A DNA stretch of 64,000 bases from an uncultured Planctomycetales bacterium (GTDB lineage: Bacteria > Omnitrophota > Gorgyraeia > Gygaellales > JAHJCI01). Where the stretch lies: contig CAZQEY010000001.1 of assembly GCA_964592485.1 (NCBI GenBank), positions 95,935-159,934 of the forward strand, in the 5' to 3' direction. Below the pieces are notes generated by a model. It was not told the DNA's origin. It saw nothing but the letters and a program-made list of their open reading frames with translations, and did no database searches. The position numbers were made by a program, and so were the translations under genes. Shown here piece by piece: positions 3,310-21,535 of the stretch (position 1 is the stretch's first letter; every line of letters starts with the position of its first letter).

Positions 3310-4155
3310 CTAAAGTGGCTCTAAAATAAAGAAATTAAAATAGCTTCCCTCATTTTTATGAGTCAAACCCAATGGTTTAAAATAATTTATAGGAAAATTA
3401 TCGCAAAACCTCAAAAATGCATAACTTATTATCTTTTTAAAATCAGCAGTAGAAAACTCAAAGACATGGCAATCAACATCCCTTACCGAAGACTCCGACC
3501 ACCCTCCCTTATTAATATCCAGCATTTTTAGATTCTTCCAATAATCCAAATCATAAATAATTGTTCTTTCTACATATGGTATGGACAAAAATATCCTTTT
3601 TTTTGTCACTCTCCTTAATTCTTTTAGGGCTTGGACTGGATTTGGTATATGTTCGATACACTCAAAACAAAAGGTGTATTCAAAAGACTTATCCCCAAAG
3701 GGAAGCTGCTCGATATCTCCTACCTCTGCCTCTATACCACTTTTCTTTATAAATTCTACCACGTCAGGATTGATATTTACTGAAAGACCTCTGCGCCTCA
3801 TCGCACGCAAAAGAATCCCACTAGTATCTCCGATATCAGCTACAGCTATATTATTATCAAAAAGCTGAGGATAATATTCTAAAAAAAACTTGTATATCCG
3901 ATAATATCTTATTTGATTTATAAACAAGTCTGGGTGTTCCCTGGTTTGCCTCATGGGTTCGTATACGTAATGATTATTTAAATCTTCCTGAGGAAATAAT
4001 TCTTGAATTTCCGGCGTGGAATTAATTAACATATGGAGCTTTTCATAAAGCCTACTAATATATATATTGTATAGTCTCTTTATAAATGAAAACACAGAAC
4101 TGGGAAGCATCCGCTTTACAATAGATTTTATGTTCATAATTTCATTAATTAACAA
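3310..4155 (-). CDS. class I SAM-dependent methyltransferase
   Basis: Motif I-like VADIGDTSGILL, followed by the acidic and hydrophobic motifs (ECIEHIPNP) typical of Methyltransf_11/23. Confidence 0.65.
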   Translation of the reverse strand: MLINEIMNIKSIVKRMLPSSVFSFIKRLYNIYISRLYEKLHMLINSTPEIQELFPQEDLNNHYVYEPMRQTREHPDLFINQIRYYRIYKFFLEYYPQLFDNNIAVADIGDTSGILLRAMRRRGLSVNINPDVVEFIKKSGIEAEVGDIEQLPFGDKSFEYTFCFECIEHIPNPVQALKELRRVTKKRIFLSIPYVERTIIYDLDYWKNLKMLDINKGGWSESSVRDVDCHVFEFSTADFKKIISYAFLRFCDNFPINYFKPLGLTHKNEGSYFNFFILEPL

Positions 4156-5645
4156 TACTTCTGCTGATAGATATCTCTAAGTTGTTTAAATTTCGCATTT
4201 CCCACTTCATCAAATTTCTCAGCCCTGTTGATTTCGTTCCAGAACTGCTTAGACATCTTTACATACATCACAAAAGTTCGCATAAGACCTCGAATCTCTT
4301 GGTTTAATAATTGTGGCATCTCAAGAATGCTGCCCAGTGTCACACATATCGGTAAGGGCAAATCTTCTCTGATAAATCCATTTTTTTTACAGACTTCATA
4401 CAATTCAGTACCCTTGAAGGGATAAAATGCATAAGCATTACAGCTATCAAAAATAGTCTTTCTATTTAACTCAATAGTATCAAATATCAATTCCCTTGTT
4501 TCAAAAGGAAAACCAATTATATTATTTACCGTCAAAGGAATACCAGCCTCATTTATTATTTTAGTAGCTTCTATAAATATTTCATTATCAAACTCTTTCT
4601 TTAATACCCTTTTTCTAAACTCAGGATTACCATGTTCAAGACCTATTGACATTCGATGGCAACCTACACTTTTAAGTCGCCTCATTCTATCTGGCTTAAC
4701 AGTTTCGGGCCTGGTCTGAATCCAAAAGGGGAGTTTAAACTCTGAATACATCTCTATAAATTCATCAAATTCCCTGTCAGACATTACCAGGAAAGTATCG
4801 GAGGCAAAATATATATATTCGGCCTGCCATTTATCAATCAGGAATTTTAGTTCTTGATGTATTTTTTTTATGCTTTTTTTCCTGAAAAAATTGTGTACAT
4901 TATTGTTCCTATATAGCTTGGCAATAGTCGGAGAATTGCAGAATGTGCAATGAAAAAGGCAACCCCTATTGGTCTCCATAGGAACCATTCTATATACCCC
5001 TCCTGCCATTGGCCGATATAATCTGCGAGAGTCAAAAACACTGTAGTCAGGTATAGGTAGAGAGTTTAAATCTACAATTCCATTCAAAGCATTCCTAATA
5101 ATTCTGCCATCGTTTTTCTTTACCCATAAATTCTTAATTCTCGTATAATCTCTTGCTTCAGCTAAACTTTCGCATAACTCTAATAAGGCAATCTCGCCTT
5201 CCCCAACACATACGAAGTCAACAGAAGGATTCGCTATAGCCTCATCAGGAGCTACAGTAGGAAATACCCCTCCTGCTACTACCGGTATTTTATAATCCTC
5301 AATGGCCTCCAACATTCTAGACCCCATATGATACGTCCCTTCCAATGCCGATAGAGCAATAAGATTGGGTTTAAAATCTTCTACTTTTGCTCTAAGATCC
5401 TGGAACATATCTCCTTTGTTCGAGTAAATACCCCTTTCCTGAAAACTAAAAGGTTTTACTTGCAAATGTTCTAACTTTGCTAAATCAGAATTAATCGTTT
5501 CTGTTTCATAAAATGTGCTATCAAATACATCAACTTCAATCCTGCGCTCTTTCAATATAGCAGCCATAATGCCTATAGCAATAGGGGGTGGATTAAGAAA
5601 AGGCTCATTAGGATAAAGAAACAGGACTTTAAATTTAGAATTCAC
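4149..5645 (-). CDS. cobalamin (B12)-binding radical SAM enzyme (class B rSAM)
   Basis: N-terminal B12-binding-like Rossmann region, then a CxxxCxxC cluster motif (RGCLFHCTFCNS). It is a paralog of the rSAM at 35075-36571 (shared IKNLWVKK, CVGEGE and DLNSLP blocks). Confidence 0.85.
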   Translation of the reverse strand: MNSKFKVLFLYPNEPFLNPPPIAIGIMAAILKERRIEVDVFDSTFYETETINSDLAKLEHLQVKPFSFQERGIYSNKGDMFQDLRAKVEDFKPNLIALSALEGTYHMGSRMLEAIEDYKIPVVAGGVFPTVAPDEAIANPSVDFVCVGEGEIALLELCESLAEARDYTRIKNLWVKKNDGRIIRNALNGIVDLNSLPIPDYSVFDSRRLYRPMAGGVYRMVPMETNRGCLFHCTFCNSPTIAKLYRNNNVHNFFRKKSIKKIHQELKFLIDKWQAEYIYFASDTFLVMSDREFDEFIEMYSEFKLPFWIQTRPETVKPDRMRRLKSVGCHRMSIGLEHGNPEFRKRVLKKEFDNEIFIEATKIINEAGIPLTVNNIIGFPFETRELIFDTIELNRKTIFDSCNAYAFYPFKGTELYEVCKKNGFIREDLPLPICVTLGSILEMPQLLNQEIRGLMRTFVMYVKMSKQFWNEINRAEKFDEVGNAKFKQLRDIYQQKYC

Positions 5646-7645
5646 CCTTCTACGCTCCTGAGGAGATTATCATAGTATTGTTTGTCGTCTAAATAAATAT
5701 TCAAATATTTATTTAAGAATTTTCTATAACCATTCCCGTCAATATCTCGCCTATTTTGCATAATACGAATCACAGTATTAAATAACTCAACTGGATTATT
5801 TATATATATTGCTAAATTACTAAGCTTAGATAAAGGGCAAAGGTCAATTATACTATAAAGAGAGGGAACGATAACCGGAATACCATTGTAAATTGCCCAG
5901 AAAACCGAAGAAGACTCCTTTACAATCATTGCTTTTGATTCCGGTATAATCTCTTGCAAACGCTTATTTGTAAACTTAAATACCTTGCTGTTTATATCCA
6001 ACCCCATCCTCCTAGCCACCTTCTGGATAGGGTCGCAAGGATGCGTCTTAAGTAAGATATCGAAGTTTAAATTCTTGTCATTAAAGGCATGAAATAATAA
6101 CAGTAGCATTTCTCGATTCTCAAGCGGACAAAGAGAAAACGGCACGACAACCTGACCCTTTCTCCTTTCCTTTATGGTTAAGATATCTGGAGATTCTCTA
6201 AAATCATGAAATCTAAATCCGCCTAAAATAAATAATTTTTCTCTAGGCCAACAACCCTGAAGAAGAATATCTCTGGTGATACTCCCTACACAACCCAAAT
6301 AATCTGGGGCAGGACAATATTTTACATAGTCATTTCCCCTTAAATCCTCTGGATGGTCGAAATAATTAAGCATTAACAACGGCACTATTGAATGTTGCAT
6401 CCCAACACATGTAATATCTCCTCTTTTTGCACAGGCAACAATTAATGCTTTCTCCCAGGATTGCATCTCTGCAAAATAAAGCACTTTTATATATTTGGGG
6501 AGATCTTCAATAATGTTTGAAAATGCTATGTAATTGCTAATTCCCCAAATAAGTATTTTGCCCATAAAAGATGACAGAAAATCCTTCTTAAGTATTTCCC
6601 ATAAATTTATCCTGAGATTAGTAACAGGATCCCGATAAACAAAGTGAGCTCTATATCTATTTAGATTTATCAATGCCCTGACAGATAAGAGAAAATAGGT
6701 AAAAATAATTCTACTGAATTCTTTATATCCTAACCATTCTTCCAGTATAAAAAATTTACTGTTTTCTTTAACCCTCTTGGCTATCTTCAAAGTCTTAGAC
6801 CAATTATATGAGTTTATAGGAACGAACATCCCCAGCCATGCTACTTTGTTTTTATGATTACTCTCTATAGAATTTTGAAGAGAGCCATAAGCCAGATTGA
6901 CAAATCTTCCATCTTTAAGTTTTGTTTCATCAACAGAAGGAAAAGCAGTGACAGCCAAAATCTTGGAATCACGGAGATATTCTCTTTGATTTTTAAAGCG
7001 CCTCTCTAACCTCTTAGCGCCAATGGCTCTTTGTAATAGTGCCAGAATAAATTTTGCCACTCTTAACATTTCTATGAATATTAATTTAATCTCTCCCGTA
7101 TAGCCATGATAACTTCTGTAGCCAGAAATAGATACGAAATCATCTAGTCCAGAAGCAGATAATACATTGCCAATTACACCATTTTTTCTATTTAACCATA
7201 TTTGTTCACACCCTAATTCATTTTTTAAATGTAATATAGTCAAAATTTTGCAAAACTTAGTGAAAGCAGAGCTTTTATAAGGATTCTTTTCTGCAATTAA
7301 GGAAAACCACCATACAGAAAATTCACCAGAAGGATAAGTGAAATATCTTTTTAAATTTATACCATTAAAAAAATCCTTTTCTCCGAGTTCATGAATAAAG
7401 TTTATATATTCCTGTTTTAACTCAAACGCCTTTTTATTAAACCTATATATAAAATCTACTAACTCAGCTTCTATAGTAGTTTTTTTCTCTAAAGATTTCT
7501 TAAGCTGTTGGGCAAGTCTATCCGCATTATATTCAATCGGACATAAGAAAACTTCCTCTATATTATTATTATCGCCAGAAATCCTCCTCAAAACTTCAGT
7601 CTCTCTGTCTCTTCCTGTGAGTACCAGTAAAATTCTTTTGCCCAT
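5642..7645 (-). CDS. large hypothetical protein with a TagF-like (CDP/CMP-donor GT-B) C-terminal domain
   Basis: C-terminus has an HP motif (KTHPCDP) and ...MIVKESSSVFWAIYNGIPVIV. This resembles the catalytic His-Pro and D-Y-S-S...P-V-I blocks of TagB/TagF glycerophosphotransferases and the HP motif of bacterial sialyltransferases. Its 4-nt overlap with the downstream rSAM suggests co-translation. Confidence 0.45.
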   Translation of the reverse strand: MGKRILLVLTGRDRETEVLRRISGDNNNIEEVFLCPIEYNADRLAQQLKKSLEKKTTIEAELVDFIYRFNKKAFELKQEYINFIHELGEKDFFNGINLKRYFTYPSGEFSVWWFSLIAEKNPYKSSAFTKFCKILTILHLKNELGCEQIWLNRKNGVIGNVLSASGLDDFVSISGYRSYHGYTGEIKLIFIEMLRVAKFILALLQRAIGAKRLERRFKNQREYLRDSKILAVTAFPSVDETKLKDGRFVNLAYGSLQNSIESNHKNKVAWLGMFVPINSYNWSKTLKIAKRVKENSKFFILEEWLGYKEFSRIIFTYFLLSVRALINLNRYRAHFVYRDPVTNLRINLWEILKKDFLSSFMGKILIWGISNYIAFSNIIEDLPKYIKVLYFAEMQSWEKALIVACAKRGDITCVGMQHSIVPLLMLNYFDHPEDLRGNDYVKYCPAPDYLGCVGSITRDILLQGCWPREKLFILGGFRFHDFRESPDILTIKERRKGQVVVPFSLCPLENREMLLLLFHAFNDKNLNFDILLKTHPCDPIQKVARRMGLDINSKVFKFTNKRLQEIIPESKAMIVKESSSVFWAIYNGIPVIVPSLYSIIDLCPLSKLSNLAIYINNPVELFNTVIRIMQNRRDIDGNGYRKFLNKYLNIYLDDKQYYDNLLRSVEG

Positions 7646-7684: not shown

Positions 7685-8572
7685 CTATTTCCTTATCTTA
7701 ATACCTCTATCATGCTCATGTATAGACTGTAATAATTCCAAGATTCCCTGGCCAAGATCTACGTAACTTGAATTAACTAACCGCTTAGCCAATTTTGGTC
7801 TAAAATTATAAGGGGTTATCTCATAATGCTCCTCGTAATCCTCTTTCGTAAACTCTAATTCAATTTCGTTATTCATCATCTCTTTAATCATTATTAACAG
7901 ATCCTTAATTCGCATGGGTTGATGCCCTGATATCATTACATATTGATTTTTAAACTCATCATCCAATATCTTAACACTTAGACGTGCAGCATCATAAACA
8001 TGTATGTACTCTCGTAACTCTTCGCCATCTCCCCTGCGTGTAATCTTCTTCTCAATTAGAGCTTGCATTAAAGTGTTGTAAATCCAGTTGCGCGCGTCAG
8101 CTCGAGGACCATATAAAGACCCATATCTTAAAATAGTGAAATCGATGTTATGCTGTTTATGGTAACATTCAATTATCAATTCACAGGCCTGTTTGCTGGC
8201 TCGATAGTACGACCCTGCCTGGCTATAAACATATACAGTACTGGCGAATATAAAACGTTTAACGTTGTTCAAACAACAAGCTTCCAATATATTCGTGGTG
8301 CCAATAACATTGGTGGTGATGGTATTGTAGGGTTGAGATTTTGCTTCACCGATATCTGCAACTCCTGCAAAATGATATACCACATCCACCCCTTTAGTAA
8401 TCCTTTCAACCGCTTCTGAATCCAAAATATTTCCTACCACCATTTCTTGTGTAGGTTTTAGATAAAGCGTTGGTTTTATGTCACAGATAATGACTTGGTG
8501 ATTGTTCTCAGAAAGACAGTCAGCTACATGACTACCCAAAAAACCTGAACCTCCAAAAACTACTACTTTCAC
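7685..8572 (-). CDS. NAD-dependent epimerase/dehydratase (extended SDR)
   Basis: MKVVVFGGSGFLGSHVADCL Rossmann motif, plus YxxxK context (YYRASKQACE). Confidence 0.8.
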   Translation of the reverse strand: MKVVVFGGSGFLGSHVADCLSENNHQVIICDIKPTLYLKPTQEMVVGNILDSEAVERITKGVDVVYHFAGVADIGEAKSQPYNTITTNVIGTTNILEACCLNNVKRFIFASTVYVYSQAGSYYRASKQACELIIECYHKQHNIDFTILRYGSLYGPRADARNWIYNTLMQALIEKKITRRGDGEELREYIHVYDAARLSVKILDDEFKNQYVMISGHQPMRIKDLLIMIKEMMNNEIELEFTKEDYEEHYEITPYNFRPKLAKRLVNSSYVDLGQGILELLQSIHEHDRGIKIRK

Positions 8573-8640
8573 GATATCCCTCCTTAGATTAATTTCATTT
8601 ATTCTTTAGACATACTAAACAACCTTCCTACTAAGCTTGG

Positions 8641-9279
8641 TTATAATGAAACTAGTGAAGCATCTAGCATATTTAGATTATCTAATCGATGTTGACAGTT
8701 CACTAATTCTTTAGATTCAGAATTAATTCGTGCAATAAAATATACACCTGTATCTCCAGCAGCCTTTAAGTCTGTTATAGAATCGCCTATGAAAACGACC
8801 TCCCGCGGGGAATAGTTATTGCGTGAGATGATGCCAAGAATAATCTCTGTTTTTGAGGGAGGTGAACCATATACTTCCTTAAAATAATCACACAACTCTC
8901 GTTTTGTTACAATGTAATTAAGTTCTTCCTGGGGAGTACCCGAGGCTACAAAAAGAGAGTACTTTTTACAATTTGCTTTAAGGAACTCAATTGCACCAGT
9001 AACAAACGGTGCATTCAGTACCTCCTCTAACACTATGCTAGAAAACTTCCTGCCTAATTCCTCTTCCTGCTGAACAGATAAAGATAATCTTAATATATTT
9101 TTATAGATATACTTGAATTTTACATATCGAGATATACCCATATTCTGAATGTGATGATTTACTATTGCATTTATTTTTTTAGGATAATCTTGTTCAAAAA
9201 GTCTTCTGAAAGCTACTGTTTTAATATCAGCTGATTCGATTATTACGCCATCTAAATCAAAAATAATTGCTTTTATCAT
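8641..9279 (-). CDS. HAD-superfamily hydrolase (subfamily IA phosphatase-like)
   Basis: HAD motif I IIFDLDGVIIES and C-terminal motif VFIGDSITD. I placed the start at ATG 9279, which forms an ATGA overlap with the upstream stop; the track start at 9303 is a TTG. Confidence 0.8.
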   Translation of the reverse strand: MIKAIIFDLDGVIIESADIKTVAFRRLFEQDYPKKINAIVNHHIQNMGISRYVKFKYIYKNILRLSLSVQQEEELGRKFSSIVLEEVLNAPFVTGAIEFLKANCKKYSLFVASGTPQEELNYIVTKRELCDYFKEVYGSPPSKTEIILGIISRNNYSPREVVFIGDSITDLKAAGDTGVYFIARINSESKELVNCQHRLDNLNMLDASLVSL

Positions 9280-9938
9280 TCGAAAATTCCTGCTACCGTA
9301 CAAGGAACACTATCTACCCCTTCTACCCTAAGCGGCGCAACCCAAACCTCTTTTAAATTCTTGGTATTCTCTGGTATATCCATATCCTCTATAAGCAATA
9401 TAGGATGCCCTTCTCCTTCTGGATTTAAAAATGCTCTATGTGCTTCTCTTCCTAATTCACGGTGTTGATAAGATGATATAGAAACCCAATCAAAACCTAT
9501 AGCCCTGAGTAAAGGACGTTCTCTCCTCAACCACACTCCTAACTCTGGATTAATACCTGGATTTCGAAGACTGTAGACCTCATCTCCTCTTAATCTTCTC
9601 CAGCCAGATCTTAAAAGTAATAAATCAGCTTCTGGATTAATTTGGGCGGTTAAATCTTTATAAGATAAAATTTGTGCAGGTTGCACTTTTATTGACAATA
9701 CCTGTGGCTTGCGGAATAGCCAAAAATCTGCTTCATAATCAATAATTCTTGCGCCATTGACAAAAAAGTGAGCTGGGCAATCTATATGGGTTCCCCAATG
9801 ATTCTCCATTCCTATCCAATAAACCTGACAAGAATCACCATTCTCGATTGACTTCACCTGTCGTACTCTCATATTTTTTTTAATTGAACCATAAACAGGA
9901 ATCTGTGCCGATAATTTGTAGGACAGGTATTTTATCAT
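9276..9938 (-). CDS. putative cyclase / kynurenine-formamidase-family metal hydrolase
   Basis: HWGTHIDCPAHF matches the HxGTHxDxPxH signature of the cyclase family. Confidence 0.65.
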   Translation of the reverse strand: MIKYLSYKLSAQIPVYGSIKKNMRVRQVKSIENGDSCQVYWIGMENHWGTHIDCPAHFFVNGARIIDYEADFWLFRKPQVLSIKVQPAQILSYKDLTAQINPEADLLLLRSGWRRLRGDEVYSLRNPGINPELGVWLRRERPLLRAIGFDWVSISSYQHRELGREAHRAFLNPEGEGHPILLIEDMDIPENTKNLKEVWVAPLRVEGVDSVPCTVAGIFE

Positions 9939-10846
9939 TACTCCCTTAATCCCCCCAGTAGGTTTCTTGCCGCTTGCATTTCCATCTCTACCCTTGCCTC
10001 TTTGGCATAAGAGCCTATGTGAGGAGTCAAAACAACATTCTCCAACTCATGAAGCCGCCCCTTGTAAGGTTCCTCAGTAAATACATCCAAAGCAGCCCCG
10101 GCAAGATGCCCTCCACGAATAGCTCTATATAAGCCATCTTCGTCCACAGCGGTTCCGCGTGAGACATTTACCAGCCAGGCCCCTTTTTTCATCTGTGATA
10201 ATTCCTGTTCTCTTAATATCTTATCATTGCCTGAAATGTGGATTGAGACGATATCAGCCCATTGAAGTAACTCTCTAAGAGACAAGCGCTCCAACCCTAA
10301 CAATCTATCTGCAACATAGGGATCGTTATAAACTATCTTACAAGCAAAAGGTTTTAACAATTCAGCGACCTTCTGACCAATACGACCAAAACCTATTATT
10401 CCCACTCTTTTCTGGTAAAGCAGATTTCCCATCAGCTTTTCCCATCTTTCATTTTTAATGGCGACATTCATAAGATTGATTTTTCTCAAAAGATTTAAAA
10501 TCAATCCTACAGTTAACTCAGCCACTGCAAGGGTTGGTGCATCTGGAGTATTAAATACCTTTATTCCTAATCTCTTTGCGACATCCAGGTCAACATTATC
10601 AAGACCTGCACCGCAACGCGAAATAACCTTCAGGTTAGTCAATCTCTCCATAATATCAGAGCCTAGTACTTCGGTCCCTGAAATAATACCAACGACATCT
10701 CTGCATATATTTATAACCTCATCTTTATTTAATCTCCTACCATACGGATTCAATATTACAGCCATTCCTTTCCTTTCTAAAAGGCTTAATGGCGCTTTAT
10801 CGTATTTGCCAAATGATGTCGTTGTGATAGCGATTCTCTTATTCAT
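9938..10846 (-). CDS. D-isomer-specific 2-hydroxyacid dehydrogenase (short SerA/GhrA-like)
   Basis: NAD-binding GIIGFGRIGQKVAE. Catalytic-region blocks NVSRGTAVDE and ALDVFTEEP are typical of D-2-hydroxyacid dehydrogenases. Confidence 0.85.
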   Translation of the reverse strand: MNKRIAITTTSFGKYDKAPLSLLERKGMAVILNPYGRRLNKDEVINICRDVVGIISGTEVLGSDIMERLTNLKVISRCGAGLDNVDLDVAKRLGIKVFNTPDAPTLAVAELTVGLILNLLRKINLMNVAIKNERWEKLMGNLLYQKRVGIIGFGRIGQKVAELLKPFACKIVYNDPYVADRLLGLERLSLRELLQWADIVSIHISGNDKILREQELSQMKKGAWLVNVSRGTAVDEDGLYRAIRGGHLAGAALDVFTEEPYKGRLHELENVVLTPHIGSYAKEARVEMEMQAARNLLGGLRE

Positions 10847-11789
10847 TGATTCCTGCGTGTTCTGCTCGTGCCCATTGAACCATCCTTTTTAACCCCTCAA
10901 GCAAGTTAATCTTCGGCTCCCAACCAGTATCTTTTCTTATGGCATTAATATCAGCAAATATACCGAATGTATCTCCGGGTGTTGAATCACTGTATTTAAT
11001 TGGGTAGGCTAATGGCCCTTCGCCAAATGCCTCCAATTCTGCCTCTAAAAGGTCCTGCACATATGTTTTTAATCCAAAGGCAACATTATAACTTTTCCCA
11101 AAAGTTATAGAATTATCCAAACATTTCATATAAGCATCAATGACATCATCAATATAGACAAAATCTCTATAACGCCGACCAGACCCCTTTACTAATATTT
11201 CCTGTTTTTTTAAAATATACGCCATGTAAATACTAACCATTCCCTGACGCAGATTCTCCATATTCTGACCTGGACCGTAAACATTAAATAGGCGCAAGGA
11301 AGTTGTATTGATTCCTAATTTTGAATAAATTTTTAGATAATTTTCAGAAGTAAGCTTGCCAATTCCATAAAAGGATTTAGGCTTAGGTTGCGCATCTTCA
11401 CTGACTGGTTGAATTTCTTGATCGCCATAAATAGACATAGAACTTGTATATATAAAGCGTTCTATATTCTTTTTTAAACACCAGTCTAACAACATTAAGG
11501 TACTTAAACAATTAGTCTTAAGGTCATACTTGGGATCTTCGAATGAAATCTCTCCTGAGGATTGAGCAGCTAAATGAAAAACTGCATCAAATTTTCTTTT
11601 TGGCAAATGATTGCTGAAATCATCACTAGAAAGATCAAGAAAGGTAAAATCAGCATCTGCAGGAATATTACTTTTAAAACCCGTAGATAAGTTATCTATG
11701 ATATGGACCTGCCAACCAACTGAAAGAAGTTTCCGCGATAAATGCGACCCAATAAAACCAGCTCCTCCAGTTAGTAATGCTGCCTTCAT
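10839..11789 (-). CDS. NAD-dependent epimerase/dehydratase (extended SDR)
   Basis: MKAALLTGGAGFIGSHL. I moved the start to ATG 11789; the track's longer N-terminal extension overlaps the upstream gene. Confidence 0.8.
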   Translation of the reverse strand: MKAALLTGGAGFIGSHLSRKLLSVGWQVHIIDNLSTGFKSNIPADADFTFLDLSSDDFSNHLPKRKFDAVFHLAAQSSGEISFEDPKYDLKTNCLSTLMLLDWCLKKNIERFIYTSSMSIYGDQEIQPVSEDAQPKPKSFYGIGKLTSENYLKIYSKLGINTTSLRLFNVYGPGQNMENLRQGMVSIYMAYILKKQEILVKGSGRRYRDFVYIDDVIDAYMKCLDNSITFGKSYNVAFGLKTYVQDLLEAELEAFGEGPLAYPIKYSDSTPGDTFGIFADINAIRKDTGWEPKINLLEGLKRMVQWARAEHAGINE

Positions 11790-11796
11790 TCTATAT

Positions 11797-12732
11797 TCAG
11801 CCTTTCTTATAAATTCGTGCAATAAGTGTATCGCAATAACCTGTTTTTTTCATGCTTTCCAAATAGGTTCTCTCTAATTTTTCTGTAAAGAATGGTGAAT
11901 ATTTACCCTGGCCACCGGGCTTTCCTTTTATAGCCCAAGTTATGTGATTAGAAAGGTCATAACGCTGTTCTGGAATAATCTGGAAATCATCAGCAACCTC
12001 TTTTAAAACGTATTCCAAAGATTTTTTATTGAAGTAATAATTGTGTGCAACACTCCAATAGAATCTGTTAAATGCCGGGATATTATAAATACTTAACAAT
12101 GGATCGCTGCGGCTGGGGACTTCAAAAATCATGGTACCCCCAGGTGCTAGTAATTTAAACGCCTGCCTTAGAAAGCCAACTGGTTCAGCAATATGTTCTA
12201 AAACAAAAAAATGTAACACCAAGTCAAATTTAATCGATTGATATTGTGAATTCTTTAGTGTTTCTAAAGAATCAAAAACCTTTATTTTATTTTCTTTTAA
12301 GAAATTCGTAAAAACACGCGACGGTTCTATGCCTACAACCTCAAGCCCTTTCTTTTTTAGAGGTAGAAGCATAAAACCTGAAGAACAACCTATCTCTAAT
12401 ACCCGCTTTCCAGGAGAAAGTAAGTCAGAAAAGAAACGCAACCGCCTTTTATATTGTTTTTCATTAGATTTTAAATGAGCCTGAGGACCACTCCAGTCAA
12501 AATCCTTACCCGCTCGTTTTTCCATAAATTTTTCAAATCCCTTGGCATAAAAATTTCTTTCTTCTGTTTGGCTCATTGCCGGAAACAGAAAAGCAATATC
12601 GCATTTTAAACAGCGATAGAATTTTTGCAATTTAGTCCCGCCATAGACAAAATCTCCCACTATCTCTAATCTGCCAAGATTAGTCTTACATAGACGGCAC
12701 TTTTTAGGTTTATTATTTTCTTCACTCTTCAT
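11797..12732 (-). CDS. SAM-dependent methyltransferase with an N-terminal Cys4 zinc ribbon (TylCIII-like N-terminus)
   Basis: CRLCKTNL...CLKCDIAF zinc ribbon, followed by motif I VLEIGCSSGFML. Within class I methyltransferases this architecture recalls NDP-hexose C-methyltransferases, but the C-terminal domain of that family is absent here. Confidence 0.65.
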   Translation of the reverse strand: MKSEENNKPKKCRLCKTNLGRLEIVGDFVYGGTKLQKFYRCLKCDIAFLFPAMSQTEERNFYAKGFEKFMEKRAGKDFDWSGPQAHLKSNEKQYKRRLRFFSDLLSPGKRVLEIGCSSGFMLLPLKKKGLEVVGIEPSRVFTNFLKENKIKVFDSLETLKNSQYQSIKFDLVLHFFVLEHIAEPVGFLRQAFKLLAPGGTMIFEVPSRSDPLLSIYNIPAFNRFYWSVAHNYYFNKKSLEYVLKEVADDFQIIPEQRYDLSNHITWAIKGKPGGQGKYSPFFTEKLERTYLESMKKTGYCDTLIARIYKKG

Positions 12733-12738
12733 AATACG

Positions 12739-13521
12739 TTATCTACGGGCTTTATTTTTATAAAGTGGCAATAATGGATCTTTATCTAAAAACATTTCCA
12801 CATGTCGTAAATCTTCAATGGTATCCACGCTATAAGTTTTATATTTGCTAAATACCATTTTTACCTTGTAACCATGTCCTAAGAGCCTCAGCATATCTAC
12901 AGATTCGATTTTCTCAAGAGGAGTTGGAGGGAGTTCGTTGAATTTAATCAAGAAATCACGTCTATAAGGAATAATACATACCTGCTTTAACATTAAAGCT
13001 AGGTCTTTATTCTTTTTTCGTGAAGGAATAGGCTCTCTGGAAAAATATAAGGCAAAATTATTGTTATCCACAACCACTTTTACCTCATTAGGGTCTTGGA
13101 ACTCTTCAATATTTTCTAAAGGAGACATAAGATTAGTAACTTGTATGTTTTCGTCCTTCAATATAGGCTCTATTGCCAAATCTATCATTTCAGGAAAAAG
13201 CATTGGTTCATCCCCTTGAACCATAACCACAACATCAATCTTTTCCTTTGTTGCCTGTTCGATTTTAAACATTGCTTCCGTAGTCCGATCAGAGGCTCTT
13301 TCATGGGTATCTTTTGTCATAATAGATTTTGCGCCTATGGTTTGAGCATAATCCATTATTTCTCTATCGCAGGTAGCAATATAAGTATCGCTTAACAACT
13401 CACTCATTATACTGCGGAAATAAACATGACCAACCATGGGAATTCCACGTATTTTGGCTAAAGGCTTTCCAGGAAAACGTGTGGAAGCCATACGTACCGG
13501 TATTATGGCAACTATTTTCAT
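12739..13521 (-). CDS. kdsB: 3-deoxy-manno-octulosonate cytidylyltransferase-family enzyme (CMP-ulosonic acid synthetase)
   Basis: MKIVAIIPVRMASTRFPGKPLAKIRGIPMVGHV aligns with the KdsB N-terminus (IIPARYASTRLPGKPL..I.GKPMI.HV). The internal VQGDEP and ALYFSR blocks are also conserved. Confidence 0.8.
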   Translation of the reverse strand: MKIVAIIPVRMASTRFPGKPLAKIRGIPMVGHVYFRSIMSELLSDTYIATCDREIMDYAQTIGAKSIMTKDTHERASDRTTEAMFKIEQATKEKIDVVVMVQGDEPMLFPEMIDLAIEPILKDENIQVTNLMSPLENIEEFQDPNEVKVVVDNNNFALYFSREPIPSRKKNKDLALMLKQVCIIPYRRDFLIKFNELPPTPLEKIESVDMLRLLGHGYKVKMVFSKYKTYSVDTIEDLRHVEMFLDKDPLLPLYKNKARR

Positions 13522-14303
13522 TCCTTCCTGGCCTCCAGATGCTTTCTAACTTTTTCTAAATTATCAGCACAGGATTGCCTTAAAAACATTGTATCTAAAC
13601 TAAAGCCCAAAAATCTATAGCCTTCGTTTATTCTCCTTAATAACTCCTCCTCAGCAGGTGGAATAACATGAAAACCAGCCGGCTTCTTTATCTTCTGAGA
13701 TACTTGAATAATCTTTTTTAAGGCCTTTTTAACAGTTCCGTGTTCAAATTCTCCGGGAACTCCCAAAGAACCGGAAAGGTCATAAGGCCCCACTATAAAC
13801 CCATCTACACCATCAACCTCTAAAATATCTTCTAAGTTATTCACTGCTTCGATATGCTCGATTTGAACGATAACGATACTTTCATAATTGACCCACTTTT
13901 TATACTTCTCAAATTCAAAACCGTATCCTTGAGCCCTCGCAAGCCCAACGCCTCTTTTACCTAAAGAAGGATACTTTACTGCTCCGACTGCATTTTTAGC
14001 ATCTTCTTTTGTGTTTACCATGGGAACAATGACGCCATATGCCCCCGCATCCATTGTTCTTTTGATGAGGTTTGAATTATTCTCTCCCACTCGTACTAAA
14101 GGAGTAACTCCACAGAGTTCTATCACCCTTATTAATTCTTGTGCTTTATCTAAGGTTATAACACTATGTTCCATATCCACAGTTAACCAGTCAAATCCTA
14201 TCTTAGCCATAATCTCTGCAATGGCAGTATCAGCCAATGTTATCCATGAGCCAACAGTTAACTCCAGCCTTTTTAATTTATTTTTTAAAAAATTATTTTT
14301 CAT
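13518..14303 (-). CDS. HpcH/HpaI-family aldolase (pyruvate-dependent 4-hydroxy-2-ketoacid aldolase)
   Basis: GSWITLADTAIAEIMAKIGFDWLTVDMEHS and the RVGENN...DAGAYGVIVPMV blocks are typical of HpcH/HpaI/citrate-lyase-beta folds. I placed the start at ATG 14303, which has an AAGGGGA RBS. Confidence 0.75.
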   Translation of the reverse strand: MKNNFLKNKLKRLELTVGSWITLADTAIAEIMAKIGFDWLTVDMEHSVITLDKAQELIRVIELCGVTPLVRVGENNSNLIKRTMDAGAYGVIVPMVNTKEDAKNAVGAVKYPSLGKRGVGLARAQGYGFEFEKYKKWVNYESIVIVQIEHIEAVNNLEDILEVDGVDGFIVGPYDLSGSLGVPGEFEHGTVKKALKKIIQVSQKIKKPAGFHVIPPAEEELLRRINEGYRFLGFSLDTMFLRQSCADNLEKVRKHLEARKE

Positions 14304-14338
14304 ACTAACATTCCCCTTTATTTTATATTGCAGACACA

Positions 14339-15067
14339 TTAGGCCTTCATACCCTCGAATCCTAAATGCTCTACAATAAACTCAAGCCACTTGATATCAT
14401 TTAATGTATGGACATCAACAAAACAATTATGGTTATGATAAATCTGCTTTATGCCTTTAATCTTCTTTCCTAGATAACTCCATGGCTTTATACCTTTGTC
14501 TCTATTCAACCAAGAATTATATTTAAAACACTCTACCGCATGATCAATTTCGTAAGCCTGGTTAACTTGACGAGATATGGGAACTTTAGTTTGTCTGTCA
14601 AGAAAATAAGGAACAAGCACACCATTTTCTATTCTCATTAATGCCTCAGGAATATATTCTAAGCTTCGGATAGTAACAACAGAATCATATTCTGGATTAT
14701 CAAGCAGAAACGTAATACATTTATCAAATATGTCGGGATCTCTAAACGGCACAACGCATTCAGGAAGAACAATAATATCTAAGTCGTGATACTTATTTTT
14801 GATAAAGTTAACCCCATGATCCACAGCCTGCATAAATTTTTCATTTTTAGCCAATTCATCGTCCCTTACAATTACCTCTGCACCGGCTGCCTGAGCAATC
14901 TGGGCAGTCTCCTTGCCGTTGGTGCTAACAAAAACTTTATCTACATTTTTAGAATTTTTCGCATCAACAATTAACCATTCAAGTAAACGCCTATCTTTAA
15001 TCTTCCAGATATTCTTGCCGGGTAAACCAATGCTACCTTCCTTTGCCAGAATCAAAACAGCATTCAT
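14339..15067 (-). CDS. acylneuraminate cytidylyltransferase-family enzyme (CMP-nonulosonate synthetase-like)
   Basis: MNAVLILAKEGSIGLPGKNI is a CTP_transf_3 N-terminus (compare NeuA, which has ARxGSKGLxxKNI). Confidence 0.8.
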   Translation of the reverse strand: MNAVLILAKEGSIGLPGKNIWKIKDRRLLEWLIVDAKNSKNVDKVFVSTNGKETAQIAQAAGAEVIVRDDELAKNEKFMQAVDHGVNFIKNKYHDLDIIVLPECVVPFRDPDIFDKCITFLLDNPEYDSVVTIRSLEYIPEALMRIENGVLVPYFLDRQTKVPISRQVNQAYEIDHAVECFKYNSWLNRDKGIKPWSYLGKKIKGIKQIYHNHNCFVDVHTLNDIKWLEFIVEHLGFEGMKA

Positions 15068-16482: not shown

Positions 16483-18456
16483 TCAATCCTCCATTAGCCC
16501 TGTTAATGCCTTATCTACAAAATTATTAAAATATAATCGGAATTCTTCGGGATATCTATAATCTTTTAAATCTAAATCACTAAGGGGTGCCTTTACTGCT
16601 GTATCAAGAATCCGTGGCAAGCATTCCTTTAAAATCTCTGTCTCAGTTACATAATATACCGGTTTCTTCTCAACCTCGCTTAAGCTCTCTGTCACTTTTA
16701 TGTTAAAATGATTATACCTACTCCATTTATCATATAACACAACAGGCACCTTATTCTGTAGTGCTTCTTCTATACAGGTTGAAGAATAACTGACAAGAAG
16801 ATCAGCAATTGATAGAACAGCTTGGAATGAACCTCTATTTATTATTCTGACCTTATTACTCGTTGGTAGCAGTGTGCGGAAATCTGCCTCCGAAATATCA
16901 CATGTAGGATGTGGACGTATAACTAAAACTACGTCATCGAGTCTCTCTATGGCAGCGACAAGATCAGTAAGGCTTGAGATATATTCATCAAGTGTCTCAT
17001 CTATATGAAACCTCATGCCGTATCTGGCTTTTTGCGTTGAAGCATGCACAATAATTCTTGTGTTATTGTATACCCCAAGAATTTCATCCCTTTTTTGTTT
17101 TCGAAAATCATTATCTTTCTTAGAGTAAAGTAGTGGCCCAGAAAGAATTCGTGGCCTTGTATCTCTATAATAATTCAGAAATTTATCCGCCCAGGGAGTT
17201 TGAACAGCAACATAGCGATATGTATTGAGTATAACGCTTGTTCCTAAACGATAATTCTCAATTTTTTCAAATTCATTATTGGGTGGAACATGTGTCCCGT
17301 GGCTTATATTTAACGAACAGAGTTTTAAAAAATCACTCAATTCCCCCATTGTATAGTAAATACCCAAACTATACATTGACATTAGAAGTTTTGGTTGTAG
17401 ACGTTTTAAGATATTGGCTAACACCATTGTTGTATGCTGCAAAGAAAGAATCTCCTGTTTTAAGCCCTTGTAGGCTTTTTCTCTTAAATAAGAGCCGAAT
17501 GCAACGCCATTATAGACCAGCGATTTATTCATTTCCGAAAGAACTAACCTATCCAGTTTATCAAATTCTTCTTCGATTATCTTCTGCTGTTTAACATCTT
17601 TTCTAAAAATTCCTCTAATCAAATCAAGATGAATAATTGTTTCAAAGTAGTTCTTATTTTTAAATTTCTTTAAAAAATTAGATAAAGTCAAATATATTTT
17701 TAGCAGTTCCTGTCTGAGTGTTGATTTACCTTCCCAAATCATTATGCATCTAACATCAGCATTGCGCTGTTTTATCTCTCTCAATATGCTATCCATACGA
17801 TAGGAAAGAGCAGGAACAACAATAATCTTCTTACGATTAGGTTTTTTGGCAACACAAAATGCATAATCCATAATACTTATCAAACTGCCAATTGTATGTA
17901 TAACCTTTGTTATTAAAGAAATACCTAAAGTGCGCTTCTTAGTTTCTAAATGAATTCCATAAAAGGTAATTTTATTTTCCTTACAAAAATCTTGAGCCAT
18001 GAGTCCTAAAAATCTCTCCTCATTTTGGATGTAAGTATTTTTTGTGTACATTTTTCCTACATCTTTCGGCAGGCAGCAGTAAATTTCACTTATCGCATGC
18101 TTTTGTTTAATACCTCTAAGAATCTCGATAATCCAGAGAAAATGATTGATATACAAATGCAGGTGATGTATACATGTTTGCTCATATCCTTTTTTTATAC
18201 CAAAAGCATCTACAAAACATATCTTTTGCATAAATTGATTTACAAGCTCTTCGGTTTTCAGGATGATGCGGTGTTGTGCATTATTATCTACATAATCCAA
18301 CGTATCTTTCGAGTCTATCCCTTTATCTTTTAAGAAAGCACGGATCCTGGGATGCAAGCATACTGTAATCACATCTCCGGAATTAAAGAATCCTTTCCCA
18401 TATCTGCTTAAAATAATTTCTGCTTCATCTATAAACTCTAACAATATAATTTTCAT
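16483..18456 (-). CDS. large hypothetical protein with a TagF-like GT-B C-terminal domain (paralog of 5642-7645)
   Basis: C-terminus VIRPHPTCD...LLVSYSSTCIEEALQNKVPVVLYD carries the HP motif and the D-Y-S-S...P-V-V block of TagF/TagB-type transferases. It aligns with the C-terminus of the 5642-7645 protein. Confidence 0.45.
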   Translation of the reverse strand: MKIILLEFIDEAEIILSRYGKGFFNSGDVITVCLHPRIRAFLKDKGIDSKDTLDYVDNNAQHRIILKTEELVNQFMQKICFVDAFGIKKGYEQTCIHHLHLYINHFLWIIEILRGIKQKHAISEIYCCLPKDVGKMYTKNTYIQNEERFLGLMAQDFCKENKITFYGIHLETKKRTLGISLITKVIHTIGSLISIMDYAFCVAKKPNRKKIIVVPALSYRMDSILREIKQRNADVRCIMIWEGKSTLRQELLKIYLTLSNFLKKFKNKNYFETIIHLDLIRGIFRKDVKQQKIIEEEFDKLDRLVLSEMNKSLVYNGVAFGSYLREKAYKGLKQEILSLQHTTMVLANILKRLQPKLLMSMYSLGIYYTMGELSDFLKLCSLNISHGTHVPPNNEFEKIENYRLGTSVILNTYRYVAVQTPWADKFLNYYRDTRPRILSGPLLYSKKDNDFRKQKRDEILGVYNNTRIIVHASTQKARYGMRFHIDETLDEYISSLTDLVAAIERLDDVVLVIRPHPTCDISEADFRTLLPTSNKVRIINRGSFQAVLSIADLLVSYSSTCIEEALQNKVPVVLYDKWSRYNHFNIKVTESLSEVEKKPVYYVTETEILKECLPRILDTAVKAPLSDLDLKDYRYPEEFRLYFNNFVDKALTGLMED

Positions 18457-20143: not shown

Positions 20144-21535
20144 TTAAAAAGTACTTTTAATAAGGGCGATGCCATTCTCAACATTCAATTTTATTCTGTT
20201 TAAGCTTTTCATTCTAATTAATTGTTTTATTATCTTTTTGGGCCTAAAGTAGAATTTCCTGTAGGCAACTTTCTGCCATTTAAGCAGATCACCTTCGCTA
20301 AGACTATTTAGGCGATGAACTGGTTTTGTATGTATCCCATAATGGTCAAAATCCATATCAAATATCATCCCTTTATCATTTAATTCATTAAAAACCCTTG
20401 TTCCTGGATAAGGTTTAAGAATATGGAATTTTGCGATATCTGGATCAAGTTTAACTGCAAAGTCAATTGTATTTTTTATAGTTATTTCTGTATCTCTGGG
20501 CAGACCGAGTATAAAAAAACCCCAACTTTCTATATTGAGATTTTTAACAATCTGAAAGACAACTTCTATCTCTTTAAGCGTTGTGCCTTTACTTACAGAA
20601 TCTAAAATTTCTTGGTTTCCTGACTCTACTCCAAAGGCAATACTATAAGTTCCCATCTCTTTCAGTGTACTTAAAATTTCCGTATCCACACAATCAACCC
20701 TTAAGCCGTTTGGAAATGAAAACTTTATATTTATTTTCCTCTTGAGAATTTCTTCCTTTATCCTAAAAACTCTATTTCGATCAATGCTAAAATTATCATC
20801 CCAGAAATGAATCTCTCTAACCATGTAATTTTTTAATAAATATTCTATTTCATCGATAATGCTTTTACTGCTTCGTGGTCTGAATTTCCTTAAAAAAATA
20901 CTTTTTGCACTACAAAAACTACAATTGGAAGGGCATCCCCTTGAGGACATAATCGGAAAGACAGAAGAACTGAGTGAATCTGGATAGGTGTATTTTAATT
21001 GTTTAAAGAGGTGCCAAGCGGGAAAAGGCAAAGTATCTAAATCTTTGATCAGCTCTCTATCCTCATTAATCATAATATTTCCATTTTTCTTATACAGAAG
21101 ACCTTTAACATATGAAGGTTCTTTGTGCTGCTCCAGATAATCTACAAGCTCACAAATCGTTTCTTCCCCCTCTCCTTTAACTAAAAAGTCTATACTCTCT
21201 GGAGTTATGGCCTCTTTGGGCATAACAGTAGCATGAATCCCTCCGATGACAATCTTAGCAGAGCTTTCTTTCTTGATTATTTCACACAGCCTTACTACAT
21301 TATTATATGTAGGAGTTGTGGTTGTTATCCCAATAAGCCCAAATTGCTCTTTCTTCAAAATAGTAATAAATCTATCCTTGGTAATATTATCTGCCTCCAT
21401 ATCGATGACTTTTACATCATGTTCTTTTTGTTCAAGAACAGCACCAATATAAGCAAGACCAAGGGGAGGAAAAGACGGTTTTTTCAAATTACCATACACT
21501 TTTTCTTGTGATGGATTAATTAAAAGAATTTTCAT
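20144..21535 (-). CDS. cobalamin (B12)-binding radical SAM enzyme (class B rSAM)
   Basis: B12-binding-like N-terminal domain, then CxxxCxxC (RGCPSNCSFCSA). It is a paralog of the rSAM at 38773-40209. Confidence 0.85.
   Translation of the reverse strand: MKILLINPSQEKVYGNLKKPSFPPLGLAYIGAVLEQKEHDVKVIDMEADNITKDRFITILKKEQFGLIGITTTTPTYNNVVRLCEIIKKESSAKIVIGGIHATVMPKEAITPESIDFLVKGEGEETICELVDYLEQHKEPSYVKGLLYKKNGNIMINEDRELIKDLDTLPFPAWHLFKQLKYTYPDSLSSSVFPIMSSRGCPSNCSFCSAKSIFLRKFRPRSSKSIIDEIEYLLKNYMVREIHFWDDNFSIDRNRVFRIKEEILKRKINIKFSFPNGLRVDCVDTEILSTLKEMGTYSIAFGVESGNQEILDSVSKGTTLKEIEVVFQIVKNLNIESWGFFILGLPRDTEITIKNTIDFAVKLDPDIAKFHILKPYPGTRVFNELNDKGMIFDMDFDHYGIHTKPVHRLNSLSEGDLLKWQKVAYRKFYFRPKKIIKQLIRMKSLNRIKLNVENGIALIKSTF

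Follow-up and report, generated by a model that had tools for sequence, protein, structure and literature searches.

A pyruvate aldolase paired with a KdsB-like cytidylyltransferase: a candidate route to a CMP-activated, non-Kdo ulosonic acid

Within the window (the whole stretch of DNA analysed here, 64 kb in length), the genes at 7685-14303 are, on balance, likely to form a self-contained module that makes and activates an ulosonic acid (2-keto-3-deoxy sugar acid) other than Kdo without a PEP-dependent synthase. To our knowledge, such a synthase is the starting point of all routes so far characterised to CMP-activated keto-deoxy sugars (Kdo, sialic, legionaminic and pseudaminic acids, Kdn). 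The analysis directly shows the protein families present, the intact catalytic residues, the near-obligate linkage of the aldolase and cytidylyltransferase genes, the altered sugar pocket of the cytidylyltransferase, and the lack of KdsA or NeuB partners.

The surface-glycan locus

Profile searches of its ORFs show that the window is a single giant surface-glycan locus. Complete legionaminic and pseudaminic acid gene sets are present, each with its own NeuB-type synthase and cytidylyltransferase. LegI (31454-32509) pairs with the cytidylyltransferase at 33297-34004, and PseI (43725-44750) pairs with that at 49594-50442. Thus, two other cytidylyltransferases, at 12739-13521 and 14339-15067, are left without a PEP-dependent partner; the original prediction had named canonical kdsA/neuB-type partners for both as evidence that would count against it, and the only two NeuB-type synthases of the window pair elsewhere. 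All three ORFs on which the prediction was built, these two and the aldolase between them (13518-14303), are found on the minus strand. Profile matches also recovered the neighbors that it listed, i.e., a Zn-ribbon-type methyltransferase, two SDRs, a D-2-hydroxyacid dehydrogenase, a cyclase-family protein and a HAD protein. Its observation that KdsA, KdsD and KdsC are missing holds across all ORFs of at least 100 aa in the window, and none of the three recurs among the neighbors in 84 aldolase loci.

The aldolase was predicted to be bracketed by a KdsB-like and a NeuA-like gene. Both are present, but the NeuA-like gene (14339-15067, minus strand) lies outside the conserved module and is a lineage-specific extra. 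It encodes a divergent NeuA/PseF-type cytidylyltransferase of 242 aa that matches CTP_transf_3 (PF02348) over residues 3-130 only (E 7e-17), short of a full-length match, and scores 59 bits against the PseF model (cutoff 206). Over 132 aa, it shares 34% identity with the LegF-like protein at 33297-34004. A close homolog was found only in locus L001.

The aldolase

The aldolase gene (13518-14303, minus strand) encodes a 261 aa class II metal-dependent pyruvate aldolase of the HpcH/HpaI family (PF03328, 121 bits against a cutoff of 25, E 6e-35) and belongs to a distinct subfamily associated with glycan loci. A GGGGA ribosome-binding site lies 7 nt ahead of the ATG at 14303; starting at another ATG, at 14339, yields the 273 aa form found in NCBI. 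The aldolase stop overlaps the start of the KdsB-like gene by 4 nt, and the two genes are translationally coupled by this overlap.

HpcH/HpaI-family aldolases are known mainly as catabolic enzymes. The subfamily has the same fold as HpaI, GarL and YfaU/RhmA and the same catalytic His, Arg, Glu and Asp. All 85 subfamily sequences share H46, R71, E149 and D175, which line up with the corresponding residues of YfaU and HpaI. In HpaI, we take R70 to bind the pyruvate carbonyl, E149 and D175 to be metal ligands, and H45 to act in a proton relay. From these residues, and from those of the cytidylyltransferase described below, both enzymes look active. Unlike the catabolic enzymes, the subfamily has H150 and Y174, next to the metal ligands, as invariant residues of its own, together with H212 and R82. 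Its identity to YfaU and HpaI is 29-41%, whereas those two are 62% identical to each other. The window's aldolase misses all NCBIfam aldolase equivalog cutoffs by a factor of at least two: it scores 183 bits against HpaI (cutoff 369), 165 against GarL (393), 165 against RhmA (441), and 160 against a further aldolase equivalog (407). The closest solved structure is YfaU (2vws, 150 bits), which cleaves a 2-keto-3-deoxy sugar acid.

Relatives of the aldolase are 65-79% identical across phyla; over the wider range of 48-79% identity, they were found in at least 555 species genomes, archaea included. The loci of the subfamily always have a glycan context. No catabolic partner genes (hpa, gar, rhm) recur near the aldolase in the 84 loci, where the neighbors are glycan-biosynthesis genes. 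Clustering with the HpaI/HpcH enzymes of aromatic catabolism had been put forward as a result that would speak against the prediction; the subfamily instead forms a separate clade. In contrast to the catabolic enzymes, it has an anabolic gene context, and we propose that it runs toward condensation. N-acetylneuraminate lyase and Kdo aldolase, when reversed in chemoenzymatic synthesis, likewise join pyruvate and an aldose into a 3-deoxy-2-ulosonic acid, but they are class I Schiff-base enzymes of the NAL/DHDPS fold, are physiologically catabolic, and have no genetic coupling to a cytidylyltransferase.

Linkage and distribution of the pair

The search of other genomes for the aldolase and KdsB pair that was proposed with the prediction showed a KdsB-like neighbor for the aldolase in 83 of 84 loci; more than 15 bacterial phyla and several archaeal lineages are represented, as is a plasmid. 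Reverse seeding on the KdsB-like gene recovered the aldolase in 43 of 48 independent metagenome loci. The gap between the genes is no more than 100 bp in 35/50 loci, and their stop and start codons often overlap. The pairing is far beyond chance and is nearly obligate across phyla. The remaining five KdsB-like loci have no aldolase within 6 kb, and no replacement synthase was found in them, only methyltransferases, glycosyltransferases, a sulfotransferase and a cyclase-family protein.

An accidental adjacency would mean a catabolic HpaI, GarL or RhmA enzyme placed by chance in a glycan locus. Catabolism is what the family is best known for, and HpaI, GarL and RhmA are the top NCBIfam names. 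However, the missed equivalog cutoffs, the lack of recurring catabolic partners, and a pairing that recurs in both search directions and across domains of life all stand against this idea. The co-occurrence data effectively refute it, and we consider it extremely improbable.

The aldolase and its relatives are carried by nitrifiers, anammox relatives, syntrophs, methanogen relatives, Asgard archaea and candidate-phyla bacteria, and the module is also found in cultured strains in addition to the plasmid. Loci with the module include those of Nitrosomonas marina and Syntrophomonas wolfei subsp. methylbutyratica, and the plasmid copy lies at 40686-45138 of NZ_CP094833.1 from Acuticoccus sp. I52.16.1. 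Among the carriers of aldolase relatives are archaea, Dehalococcoidia and Patescibacteria, which, as far as we know, do not make LPS. Full-text literature searches gave no published description of the module, and neither the SugarBase preprint nor the Maf/Kdo preprint covers it.

Instead of a backbone sugar, the module could also make a small acidic substituent (for example glyceroyl, lactyl or keto-deoxy acyl) for decorating the legionaminic or pseudaminic acids that other genes of the locus produce. Nonulosonic acids modified with di-O-methylglyceroyl groups are known from Campylobacter jejuni (mentioned in the SugarBase preprint). The module sits between the Leg and Pse genes in the window together with several methyltransferases, and a PGDH-like dehydrogenase with a HAD phosphatase could yield glycerate. 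However, just 9 of 51 loci with full flanks have a NeuB-type gene within 6 kb of the module, and the plasmid locus carries none. KdsB-type enzymes activate an anomeric hydroxyl, not an acyl group, and a dedicated GT-B protein accompanies the module. We regard a substituent as very unlikely and a backbone ulosonic acid as the better reading. The pathways to Neu5Ac, legionaminic acid, pseudaminic acid and Kdn resemble the module in that CMP-activated alpha-keto acid sugars arise from surface-glycan loci, but they use a PEP-dependent NeuB-family synthase with a NeuA-type transferase, whereas the module mostly has no NeuB nearby.

Accessory genes and module variants

The aldolase and KdsB-like pair is frequently accompanied by a PGDH-like dehydrogenase, a GalE-like SDR, a HAD phosphatase and a GT-B protein. 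The first three had been guessed as associates from the window alone and are frequent partners across the loci. The D-2-hydroxyacid dehydrogenase (9938-10846, minus strand; 2-Hacid_dh_C, E 2e-51), a PGDH-like short form, is the third most constant member, present in 64/84 loci and in 43/51 of those with full flanks. It keeps the Arg/Glu/His triad. It scores 233 bits against the PGDH model (cutoff 454) and 178 bits against human PHGDH, whose "VRS" segment aligns to a single "S" with a gap. The Arg of that segment is presumably a substrate-binding residue. On the low score and the missing Arg, we rejected a true 3-phosphoglycerate dehydrogenase.

The core SDR of the window's variant of the module (7685-8572, minus strand) is an extended, GalE-type 4-epimerase-like protein (Epimerase PF01370, E 7e-45) with the GxxGxxG motif, an Asp after beta-2 and YxxxK. 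Its best PDB matches are UDP-hexose 4-epimerases (about 97 bits), and this type occurs in 51 loci. A HAD-IA phosphatase (8641-9303, minus strand; HAD_2, E 5e-19), proposed for a dephosphorylation step, carries the motifs DxDG, SGTP and GDSxxD, and its nearest solved structure is the sugar-phosphate phosphatase TM_1254. It occurs in 45/84 loci. Dehydrogenase, SDR and HAD are each missing from 15-40% of the full-flank loci.

Three other genes are accessory. The cyclase-family metal hydrolase-like protein (9276-9938, minus strand; PF04199, E 3e-19) has counterparts in 20/84 loci, where it invariably separates the HAD from the SDR or dehydrogenase. A second GalE-like extended SDR of 327 aa (10839-11822, minus strand; Epimerase, E 1e-57) scores 154 bits against the GalE model (cutoff 262), and its type occurs in 18 loci. 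The SAM-dependent methyltransferase (11797-12732, minus strand; Methyltransf_23, PF13489, E 2e-22), probably a tailoring O-methylase, has homologs in 20/84 loci, usually directly after the KdsB-like gene. Finally, a 667 aa GT-B-fold protein of a TIGR04326-like "surface carbohydrate biosynthesis" family (5642-7645, minus strand) is a candidate transferase for the activated acid, and many loci have a GT-B protein after the module. The fold match is generic, not specific to Kdo or sialyl transferases.

The module occurs in two variants, and no locus holds the genes of both. Variant A, found in the window, has the HAD and no isomerase. Variant B has an AroB-like phospholyase (TIGR04425, 423 bits against a cutoff of 400; 278 bits against the aroB model) and a GmhA-like (SIS) sugar-phosphate isomerase. 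The mutual exclusion of HAD and phospholyase, together with the isomerase, suggests a phosphorylated intermediate, mirroring the KdsD-KdsA-KdsC logic. A link to phosphonates, with pyruvate and phosphonoacetaldehyde as substrates, was also considered; PEP mutase genes lie nearby in locus L001, but PEP mutase does not recur among the neighbors, and the idea was rejected.

The KdsB-like cytidylyltransferase and its sugar pocket

The KdsB-like protein (12739-13521, minus strand; 260 aa), the proposed CMP-activating enzyme for the aldolase product, matches CTP_transf_3 over its full length (E 1e-47). It passes the NCBIfam cutoffs for PRK13368 (302 bits against 255) and kdsB (TIGR00466, 164 against 155). 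It shares about 40% identity with E. coli KdsB and KpsU (124-148 bits), and KpsU is its best PDB match (1gq9, 147 bits). The catalytic residues that bind CTP and Mg, i.e., R10, R15, K19, QGDEP (Q98, D100) and D235 in E. coli numbering, are invariant in 68-70 subfamily sequences. Positions that contact Kdo are changed in nearly all of the same sequences: H181Q, Y185I, E210D, Q211M and S74R. H181 is replaced by Gln in 68/68 and Y185 by Ile in 63/68, while Q98 is retained. The assignment of residues to sugar atoms comes from one modelling paper (PMC12199768) and sequence alignment. Y185 of E. coli KdsB hydrogen bonds to the 5-OH of Kdo, and that enzyme has no activity on 5-deoxy-Kdo, owing to the loss of the Y185 and Q98 contacts (PMC12199768). 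The replaced contacts suggest that the product of the module is probably not Kdo. The original description of a bona fide KdsB thus stands at the level of the family but not at that of the Kdo-contact residues. Similarly, of its "Kdo-like or other keto-deoxy acid", a CMP-activated keto-deoxy acid is supported by context, but Kdo itself is improbable given H181Q and Y185I.

Ordinary CMP-Kdo would still be made if the aldolase were a Kdo or Kdo-8-phosphate aldolase run in the synthetic direction, from pyruvate and D-arabinose or arabinose-5-phosphate, with the HAD acting as KdsC. The aldolase would then replace KdsA. The profile matches and the identity to KpsU/KdsB fit this scheme, and the SIS isomerase of variant B could fill the role of KdsD. 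However, the isomerase is GmhA-like rather than KdsD-like and is lacking in variant A, the dehydrogenase and SDR are left unexplained, and the five substitutions occur in essentially all subfamily members. The E. coli enzyme, moreover, does not accept the 5-deoxy sugar. We consider CMP-Kdo quite unlikely, and an acid other than Kdo remains our preferred reading. The module still parallels the Kdo pathway (KdsD, KdsA, KdsC, KdsB/KpsU), since in both a 3-deoxy-2-ulosonic acid would be built, probably dephosphorylated, activated with CTP by a homologous cytidylyltransferase, and passed to a glycosyltransferase. In contrast to the Kdo pathway, the module has a class II pyruvate aldolase where the other has PEP-dependent KdsA, its phosphatase is HAD-IA and not of the KdsC type, its transferase has other sugar-pocket residues, it also contains a 2-hydroxyacid dehydrogenase and an SDR, and its carriers include archaea and monoderm lineages.

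Proposed pathway

As the first step, we propose a condensation of pyruvate with an aldehyde by the class II aldolase, a small sugar phosphate being the most probable acceptor. The HAD phosphatase would take off the phosphate, and the KdsB-like enzyme would use CTP to place CMP on the anomeric 2-OH. The GT-B protein at 5642-7645 could then attach the acid to the surface glycan as it grows. The PGDH-like dehydrogenase and GalE-like SDR may act before the condensation, to supply the aldehyde, or after it, to modify the acid through oxidation or epimerization, and the methyltransferase may decorate the acid. We infer the direction of the aldolase reaction, the order of the steps, the phosphorylated acceptor and the identity of the sugar. 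The core of the original prediction, a pyruvate aldolase in place of a PEP-dependent synthase followed by CMP activation, is supported by the gene context, the near-obligate pair and the lack of a PEP-dependent partner. Aldol condensation with pyruvate is less favorable than with PEP.

The most constant accessory gene, that of the 2-hydroxyacid dehydrogenase, gets no necessary role in this pathway. A conversion of sugar phosphate to aldonate and then to 2-keto-aldonate would use the SDR, a lactonase-like protein, the dehydrogenase and the HAD without the aldolase. The module may accordingly be read as making a 2-keto-aldonic acid: the SDR would oxidize C1 of a sugar phosphate, the cyclase-family or Pgl-like protein would open the lactone, the dehydrogenase would oxidize C2, the HAD would dephosphorylate, and the KdsB-like enzyme would activate. 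The aldolase would only epimerize or exchange part of the chain (retro-aldol and aldol) or take hydroxypyruvate as donor. Every frequent accessory gene is thereby given a job, and the 2-hydroxyacid dehydrogenase family includes 2-ketoaldonate reductases. The SDR at 7685 has weak matches to the SDR-type glucose-6-phosphate dehydrogenase Azf, and a 6-phosphogluconolactonase-like gene follows the HAD in 12 Nitrosomonas-type loci, with a cyclase-family gene there in 20 others. However, the lactonase assignment is a guess and the Nitrosomonas synteny may be simply inherited. The sole near-obligate pair is that of the aldolase and KdsB-like genes, with the dehydrogenase, SDR and HAD less constant. 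The aldolase is also the most conserved protein of the set, which fits a central rather than an editing role. We consider a 2-keto-aldonic acid unlikely and retain the aldolase as the enzyme that builds the acid. DAH-like, KDG-like, keto-deoxy-glucarate (by a reversed glucarate pathway), Dha-like and 2-keto-aldonate products were weighed, and sequence alone favors none of these schemes.

Implications

Taken more broadly, the module may represent an unrecognized logic of ulosonic acid synthesis, in which a dedicated class II pyruvate aldolase, not KdsA or NeuB, builds a new non-Kdo CMP-activated acidic sugar for the cell surfaces of hundreds of bacterial and archaeal species, and also in some very large viral contigs. 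We consider the chances of this to be evenly balanced. Candidates for the sugar are an ulosaric acid and a 3-deoxy-ulosonic acid that is either shorter or modified at position 5, and the product of the AroB-like variant could even be an omega-deoxy or carbocyclic analog. The five-gene module, with its occurrence in cultured strains and on a plasmid, makes the idea directly testable, and the aldolase could serve as a biocatalyst for ulosonic acid synthesis. The current names of the module genes, "CMP-Kdo synthetase", "HpaI aldolase" and "phosphoglycerate dehydrogenase", would need to be corrected. If the reading is true, a widespread aldolase-based route would be a new entry point to the chemistry of CMP-activated keto-deoxy sugars, and an undescribed acidic monosaccharide is probably present on the surfaces of environmentally important microbes.

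Gene content and conservation of the aldolase cassette

The window has a GC content of ~35%, and all ORFs of note are on its minus strand. Profile searches confirmed the existence and families of the three genes at its centre. The HpcH/HpaI aldolase (13518-14303, minus strand) has a GGGGA ribosome-binding site upstream of its ATG at 14303; an alternative start at 14339 gives the 273-aa form in NCBI. Its stop overlaps by 4 nt the start of a full-length KdsB-family cytidylyltransferase (12739-13521, minus strand), which scores above the NCBIfam PRK13368 and kdsB cutoffs. The second cytidylyltransferase (14339-15067, minus strand, 242 aa) matches CTP_transf_3 over its N-terminal 130 residues and PseF weakly (59 bits vs. 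a cutoff of 206). Downstream of the KdsB-like gene are, in order, a methyltransferase, a GalE-like SDR, a PGDH-like 2-hydroxyacid dehydrogenase (9938-10846) and a cyclase-family protein, followed by a HAD-IA phosphatase (8641-9303), a second GalE-like SDR (7685-8572) and a 667-aa protein (5642-7645) without a Pfam match in profile searches.

ORFs were called in 84 loci carrying aldolase relatives and the neighbors were clustered; related Nitrosomonadaceae contribute ~20 of the 84, which makes the counts not wholly independent. The KdsB-like gene is found in 83/84 loci, and the sequence ends on that side in the sole exception. The dehydrogenase is found in 64/84, a GalE-like SDR in 57/84 (mostly of the 7685 type), a HAD in 45/84, and the cyclase-family protein and a Methyltransf_23 in 20/84 each. 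Among the loci with full flanks (≥6 kb on each side, n = 51), 50 have the KdsB-like gene, which is ≤100 bp from the aldolase in 35 of these 50. The reverse test, a metagenome scan seeded on KdsB-like proteins, recovered the aldolase in 43 of 48 loci with sequence on both sides; a replacement synthase was sought in the remaining five and none was seen. An Acuticoccus sp. plasmid carries only the aldolase, cytidylyltransferase, PGDH-like, HAD and oxidoreductase genes, consecutively. Chance adjacency of the aldolase and KdsB-like gene is very unlikely, as the pair occurs across many phyla and in both prokaryotic domains despite the Nitrosomonadaceae share.

The aldolase was predicted to be bracketed by two cytidylyltransferases. 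The KdsB-like side of this arrangement is conserved, but the other side is not: among the 84 loci, 14339-15067 has a close homolog only in L001, a locus with a closely related cassette, and it falls outside the conserved module (the aldolase and KdsB-like pair with its frequent partners). Its N-terminal half is 34% identical to a LegF-like protein. Near it, in the window (16483-18456) and in L001 (7270-9983), is a protein of about 650-657 aa with weak matches to the TIGR04396 and BFO_1060 glycosyltransferases, whose GT-B-like C-terminal part is similar to that of the 667-aa protein. Together, these two genes hint at a fourth activated acid/transferase pair, without an identifiable synthase. 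The 667-aa protein has relatives in 46/84 loci (jackhmmer), usually just after the module, and is a reasonable candidate for transfer of the activated acid, its GT-B fold match being non-specific.

The aldolase and KdsB-like enzymes

Sequence comparison places the aldolase in a separate, highly conserved clade. Relatives 65-79% identical are found in Scalindua-type planctomycetes, Omnitrophota, Thermodesulfobacteriota, Peptococcaceae, Nealsonbacteria, Hadarchaeum and Promethearchaeota. Pattern matching against one genome per species found relatives in at least 555 species genomes (among 600 pattern matches listed); among the best 80 of these (48-67% identity) are several archaea as well as cultured strains of Nitrosomonas, Nitrosospira, Syntrophomonas and Draconibacterium. 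The subfamily keeps H46, R71, E149 and D175 without exception, and H150 and Y174, which adjoin metal ligands, and R82 and H212 elsewhere are invariant only within it. The aldolase does not cluster with aromatic-catabolism enzymes: it is 29-41% identical to YfaU and HpaI, vs. 62% between those two, and misses the HpaI, GarL and RhmA NCBIfam equivalog cutoffs, all by at least 2-fold. Among solved structures the nearest is that of YfaU, an aldolase acting on 2-keto-3-deoxy sugar acids.

Distant aldolase relatives (34-41% identity) adjoining a KdsB-like gene also occur on the IMG/VR viral contigs L168, L169, L171, L172 and L206 (5.8-548 kb; four are 78-548 kb), with a PGDH-like dehydrogenase on L168, L169 and L172 and a HAD on L169. 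On many marine viral contigs, an even more distant HpcH aldolase is paired with a NeuA-like gene and an SDR.

The CTP- and Mg-binding residues (R10, R15, K19, Q98-G-D100-E-P and D235, E. coli KdsB numbering) are invariant in 68-70 sequences of the KdsB-like subfamily, and H181Q, Y185I, E210D, Q211M and S74R are near-universal active-site replacements. A modeling study of E. coli KdsB attributed contact with the Kdo 5-OH to Y185 and Q98, and explained the enzyme's inactivity on 5-deoxy-Kdo by the loss of these contacts (PMC12199768). The KdsB-like enzyme is predicted to be active yet not tuned to Kdo. In public annotation the module's genes appear as CMP-Kdo synthetase, HpaI or dehydro-deoxyglucarate aldolase, and phosphoglycerate dehydrogenase. 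The substitutions point to a sugar other than Kdo, which makes authentic Kdo a less likely product. Speculatively, gaining an Arg and losing polar contacts would fit a substrate that is shorter, 5-modified or more acidic.

The surrounding polysaccharide locus

The entire 64-kb window is a single surface-polysaccharide locus. Besides an ABC transporter and a Capsule_synth-like protein, it encodes rml, GDP-mannose and UDP-glucose dehydrogenase functions. It includes a complete legionaminic acid set: LegB, LegC, PglD-like, NeuC, NeuB (31454-32509), PtmA/PtmF/PtmE-like genes and a cytidylyltransferase (33297-34004). The pseudaminic acid set has PseC, a PseG/PseH fusion, PseI (43725-44750), a Pse-associated methylase, WbuX/Y/Z and a full-length CTP_transf_3 gene (49594-50442). 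Each set contains a cytidylyltransferase, and therefore each NeuB-type synthase already has its own partner; 12739-13521 and 14339-15067 are without a PEP-dependent synthase partner in the window. "Third ulosonic acid" was thus fair wording, and the predicted lack of KdsA, KdsC and KdsD held in profile searches of the 64 kb. The module could instead decorate the nonulosonic acids encoded beside it in the window, but this is less likely; only 9/51 full-flank loci have NeuB.

Four B12-binding radical SAM enzymes (4149-5645, 20144-21535, 35075-36571, 38773-40236) are interspersed among the nonulosonic acid genes. Two lie within the legionaminic acid set, where they flank LegC and LegB. These enzymes could add C-methyl groups to the sugars or lengthen them. 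Canonical PseB (TIGR03589) was not found in the Pse gene set (43725-53152). In its stead is a 477-aa GalE-like SDR (51719-53152) whose N-terminal extension weakly matches the C-terminal region of the KpsF/GutQ sugar-phosphate isomerase model (positions 172-239 of 268). The Pse-set cytidylyltransferase (282 aa) is atypical, with weak KdsB-model matches and no PseF match. Two separate WbuX/HisH-like/HisF-like amidotransferase sets, near the Leg (25754-28568) and Pse (46239-48856) genes, suggest acetamidino modification of both nonulosonic acids. Two proteins, of 567 aa (1562-3265) and 688 aa (23599-25665), match no family. The latter has homologs in five related loci; the L001 homolog lies after genes for PEP mutase, phosphonopyruvate decarboxylase and aminotransferase and weakly matches PFTS_polysacc, and the 688-aa protein may therefore attach phosphonate. 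A small MarR/winged-helix regulator gene (55811-56158) is inside the otherwise purely biosynthetic locus.

Module variants and proposed pathway

The full-flank loci include two variants of the module, which never occur together in one locus. In variant A, the window's form (32/51), the core pair is joined by the dehydrogenase, the 7685-type SDR and the HAD, and in some loci by the cyclase-family protein. Variant B (9/51) keeps the dehydrogenase and swaps the SDR and HAD for a GmhA-like SIS isomerase, a short-chain dehydrogenase, a GFO-family oxidoreductase and an AroB-related protein. The last scores 423 bits against TIGR04425, "sugar phosphate phospholyase (cyclizing)" (cutoff 400), and 278 bits against the aroB model. 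The AroB substrate, DAHP, is a 3-deoxy-2-ulosonate with a terminal phosphate. By analogy, the HAD and AroB-like enzyme may therefore be alternative means by which the aldol product loses a terminal phosphate, which would imply a phosphorylated aldehyde acceptor. The variant B product might be an omega-deoxy or carbocyclic analog of the acid. Variant B loci (L002, L003, L010, L016, L041, L045, L048, L078) have an Asgard archaeon among their carriers. In ~12 Nitrosomonas-type loci (L053, L056, L058, L060-L062, L069, L070, L072, L074, L077), a 6-phosphogluconolactonase-like gene directly follows the module's HAD; this could be inherited synteny or a clue to an aldonate phosphate intermediate.

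The best-supported model has five steps. Pyruvate and a probably phosphorylated aldehyde would undergo aldol condensation, and the product would then be dephosphorylated, activated with CMP, tailored and transferred. Its main weakness is that it has no required role for the dehydrogenase, the most constant accessory gene. An alternative route from sugar phosphate via lactone and aldonate to 2-keto-aldonate puts the accessory genes to better use, but gives a lesser part to the aldolase, although no other gene is as conserved or as tightly linked.

We found no paper on the module in full-text literature searches. CMP-ulosonic acid biosynthesis is the known part of the aldolase model; the new part is a different class of carbon-carbon bond-forming enzyme, and the sugar itself is probably new.
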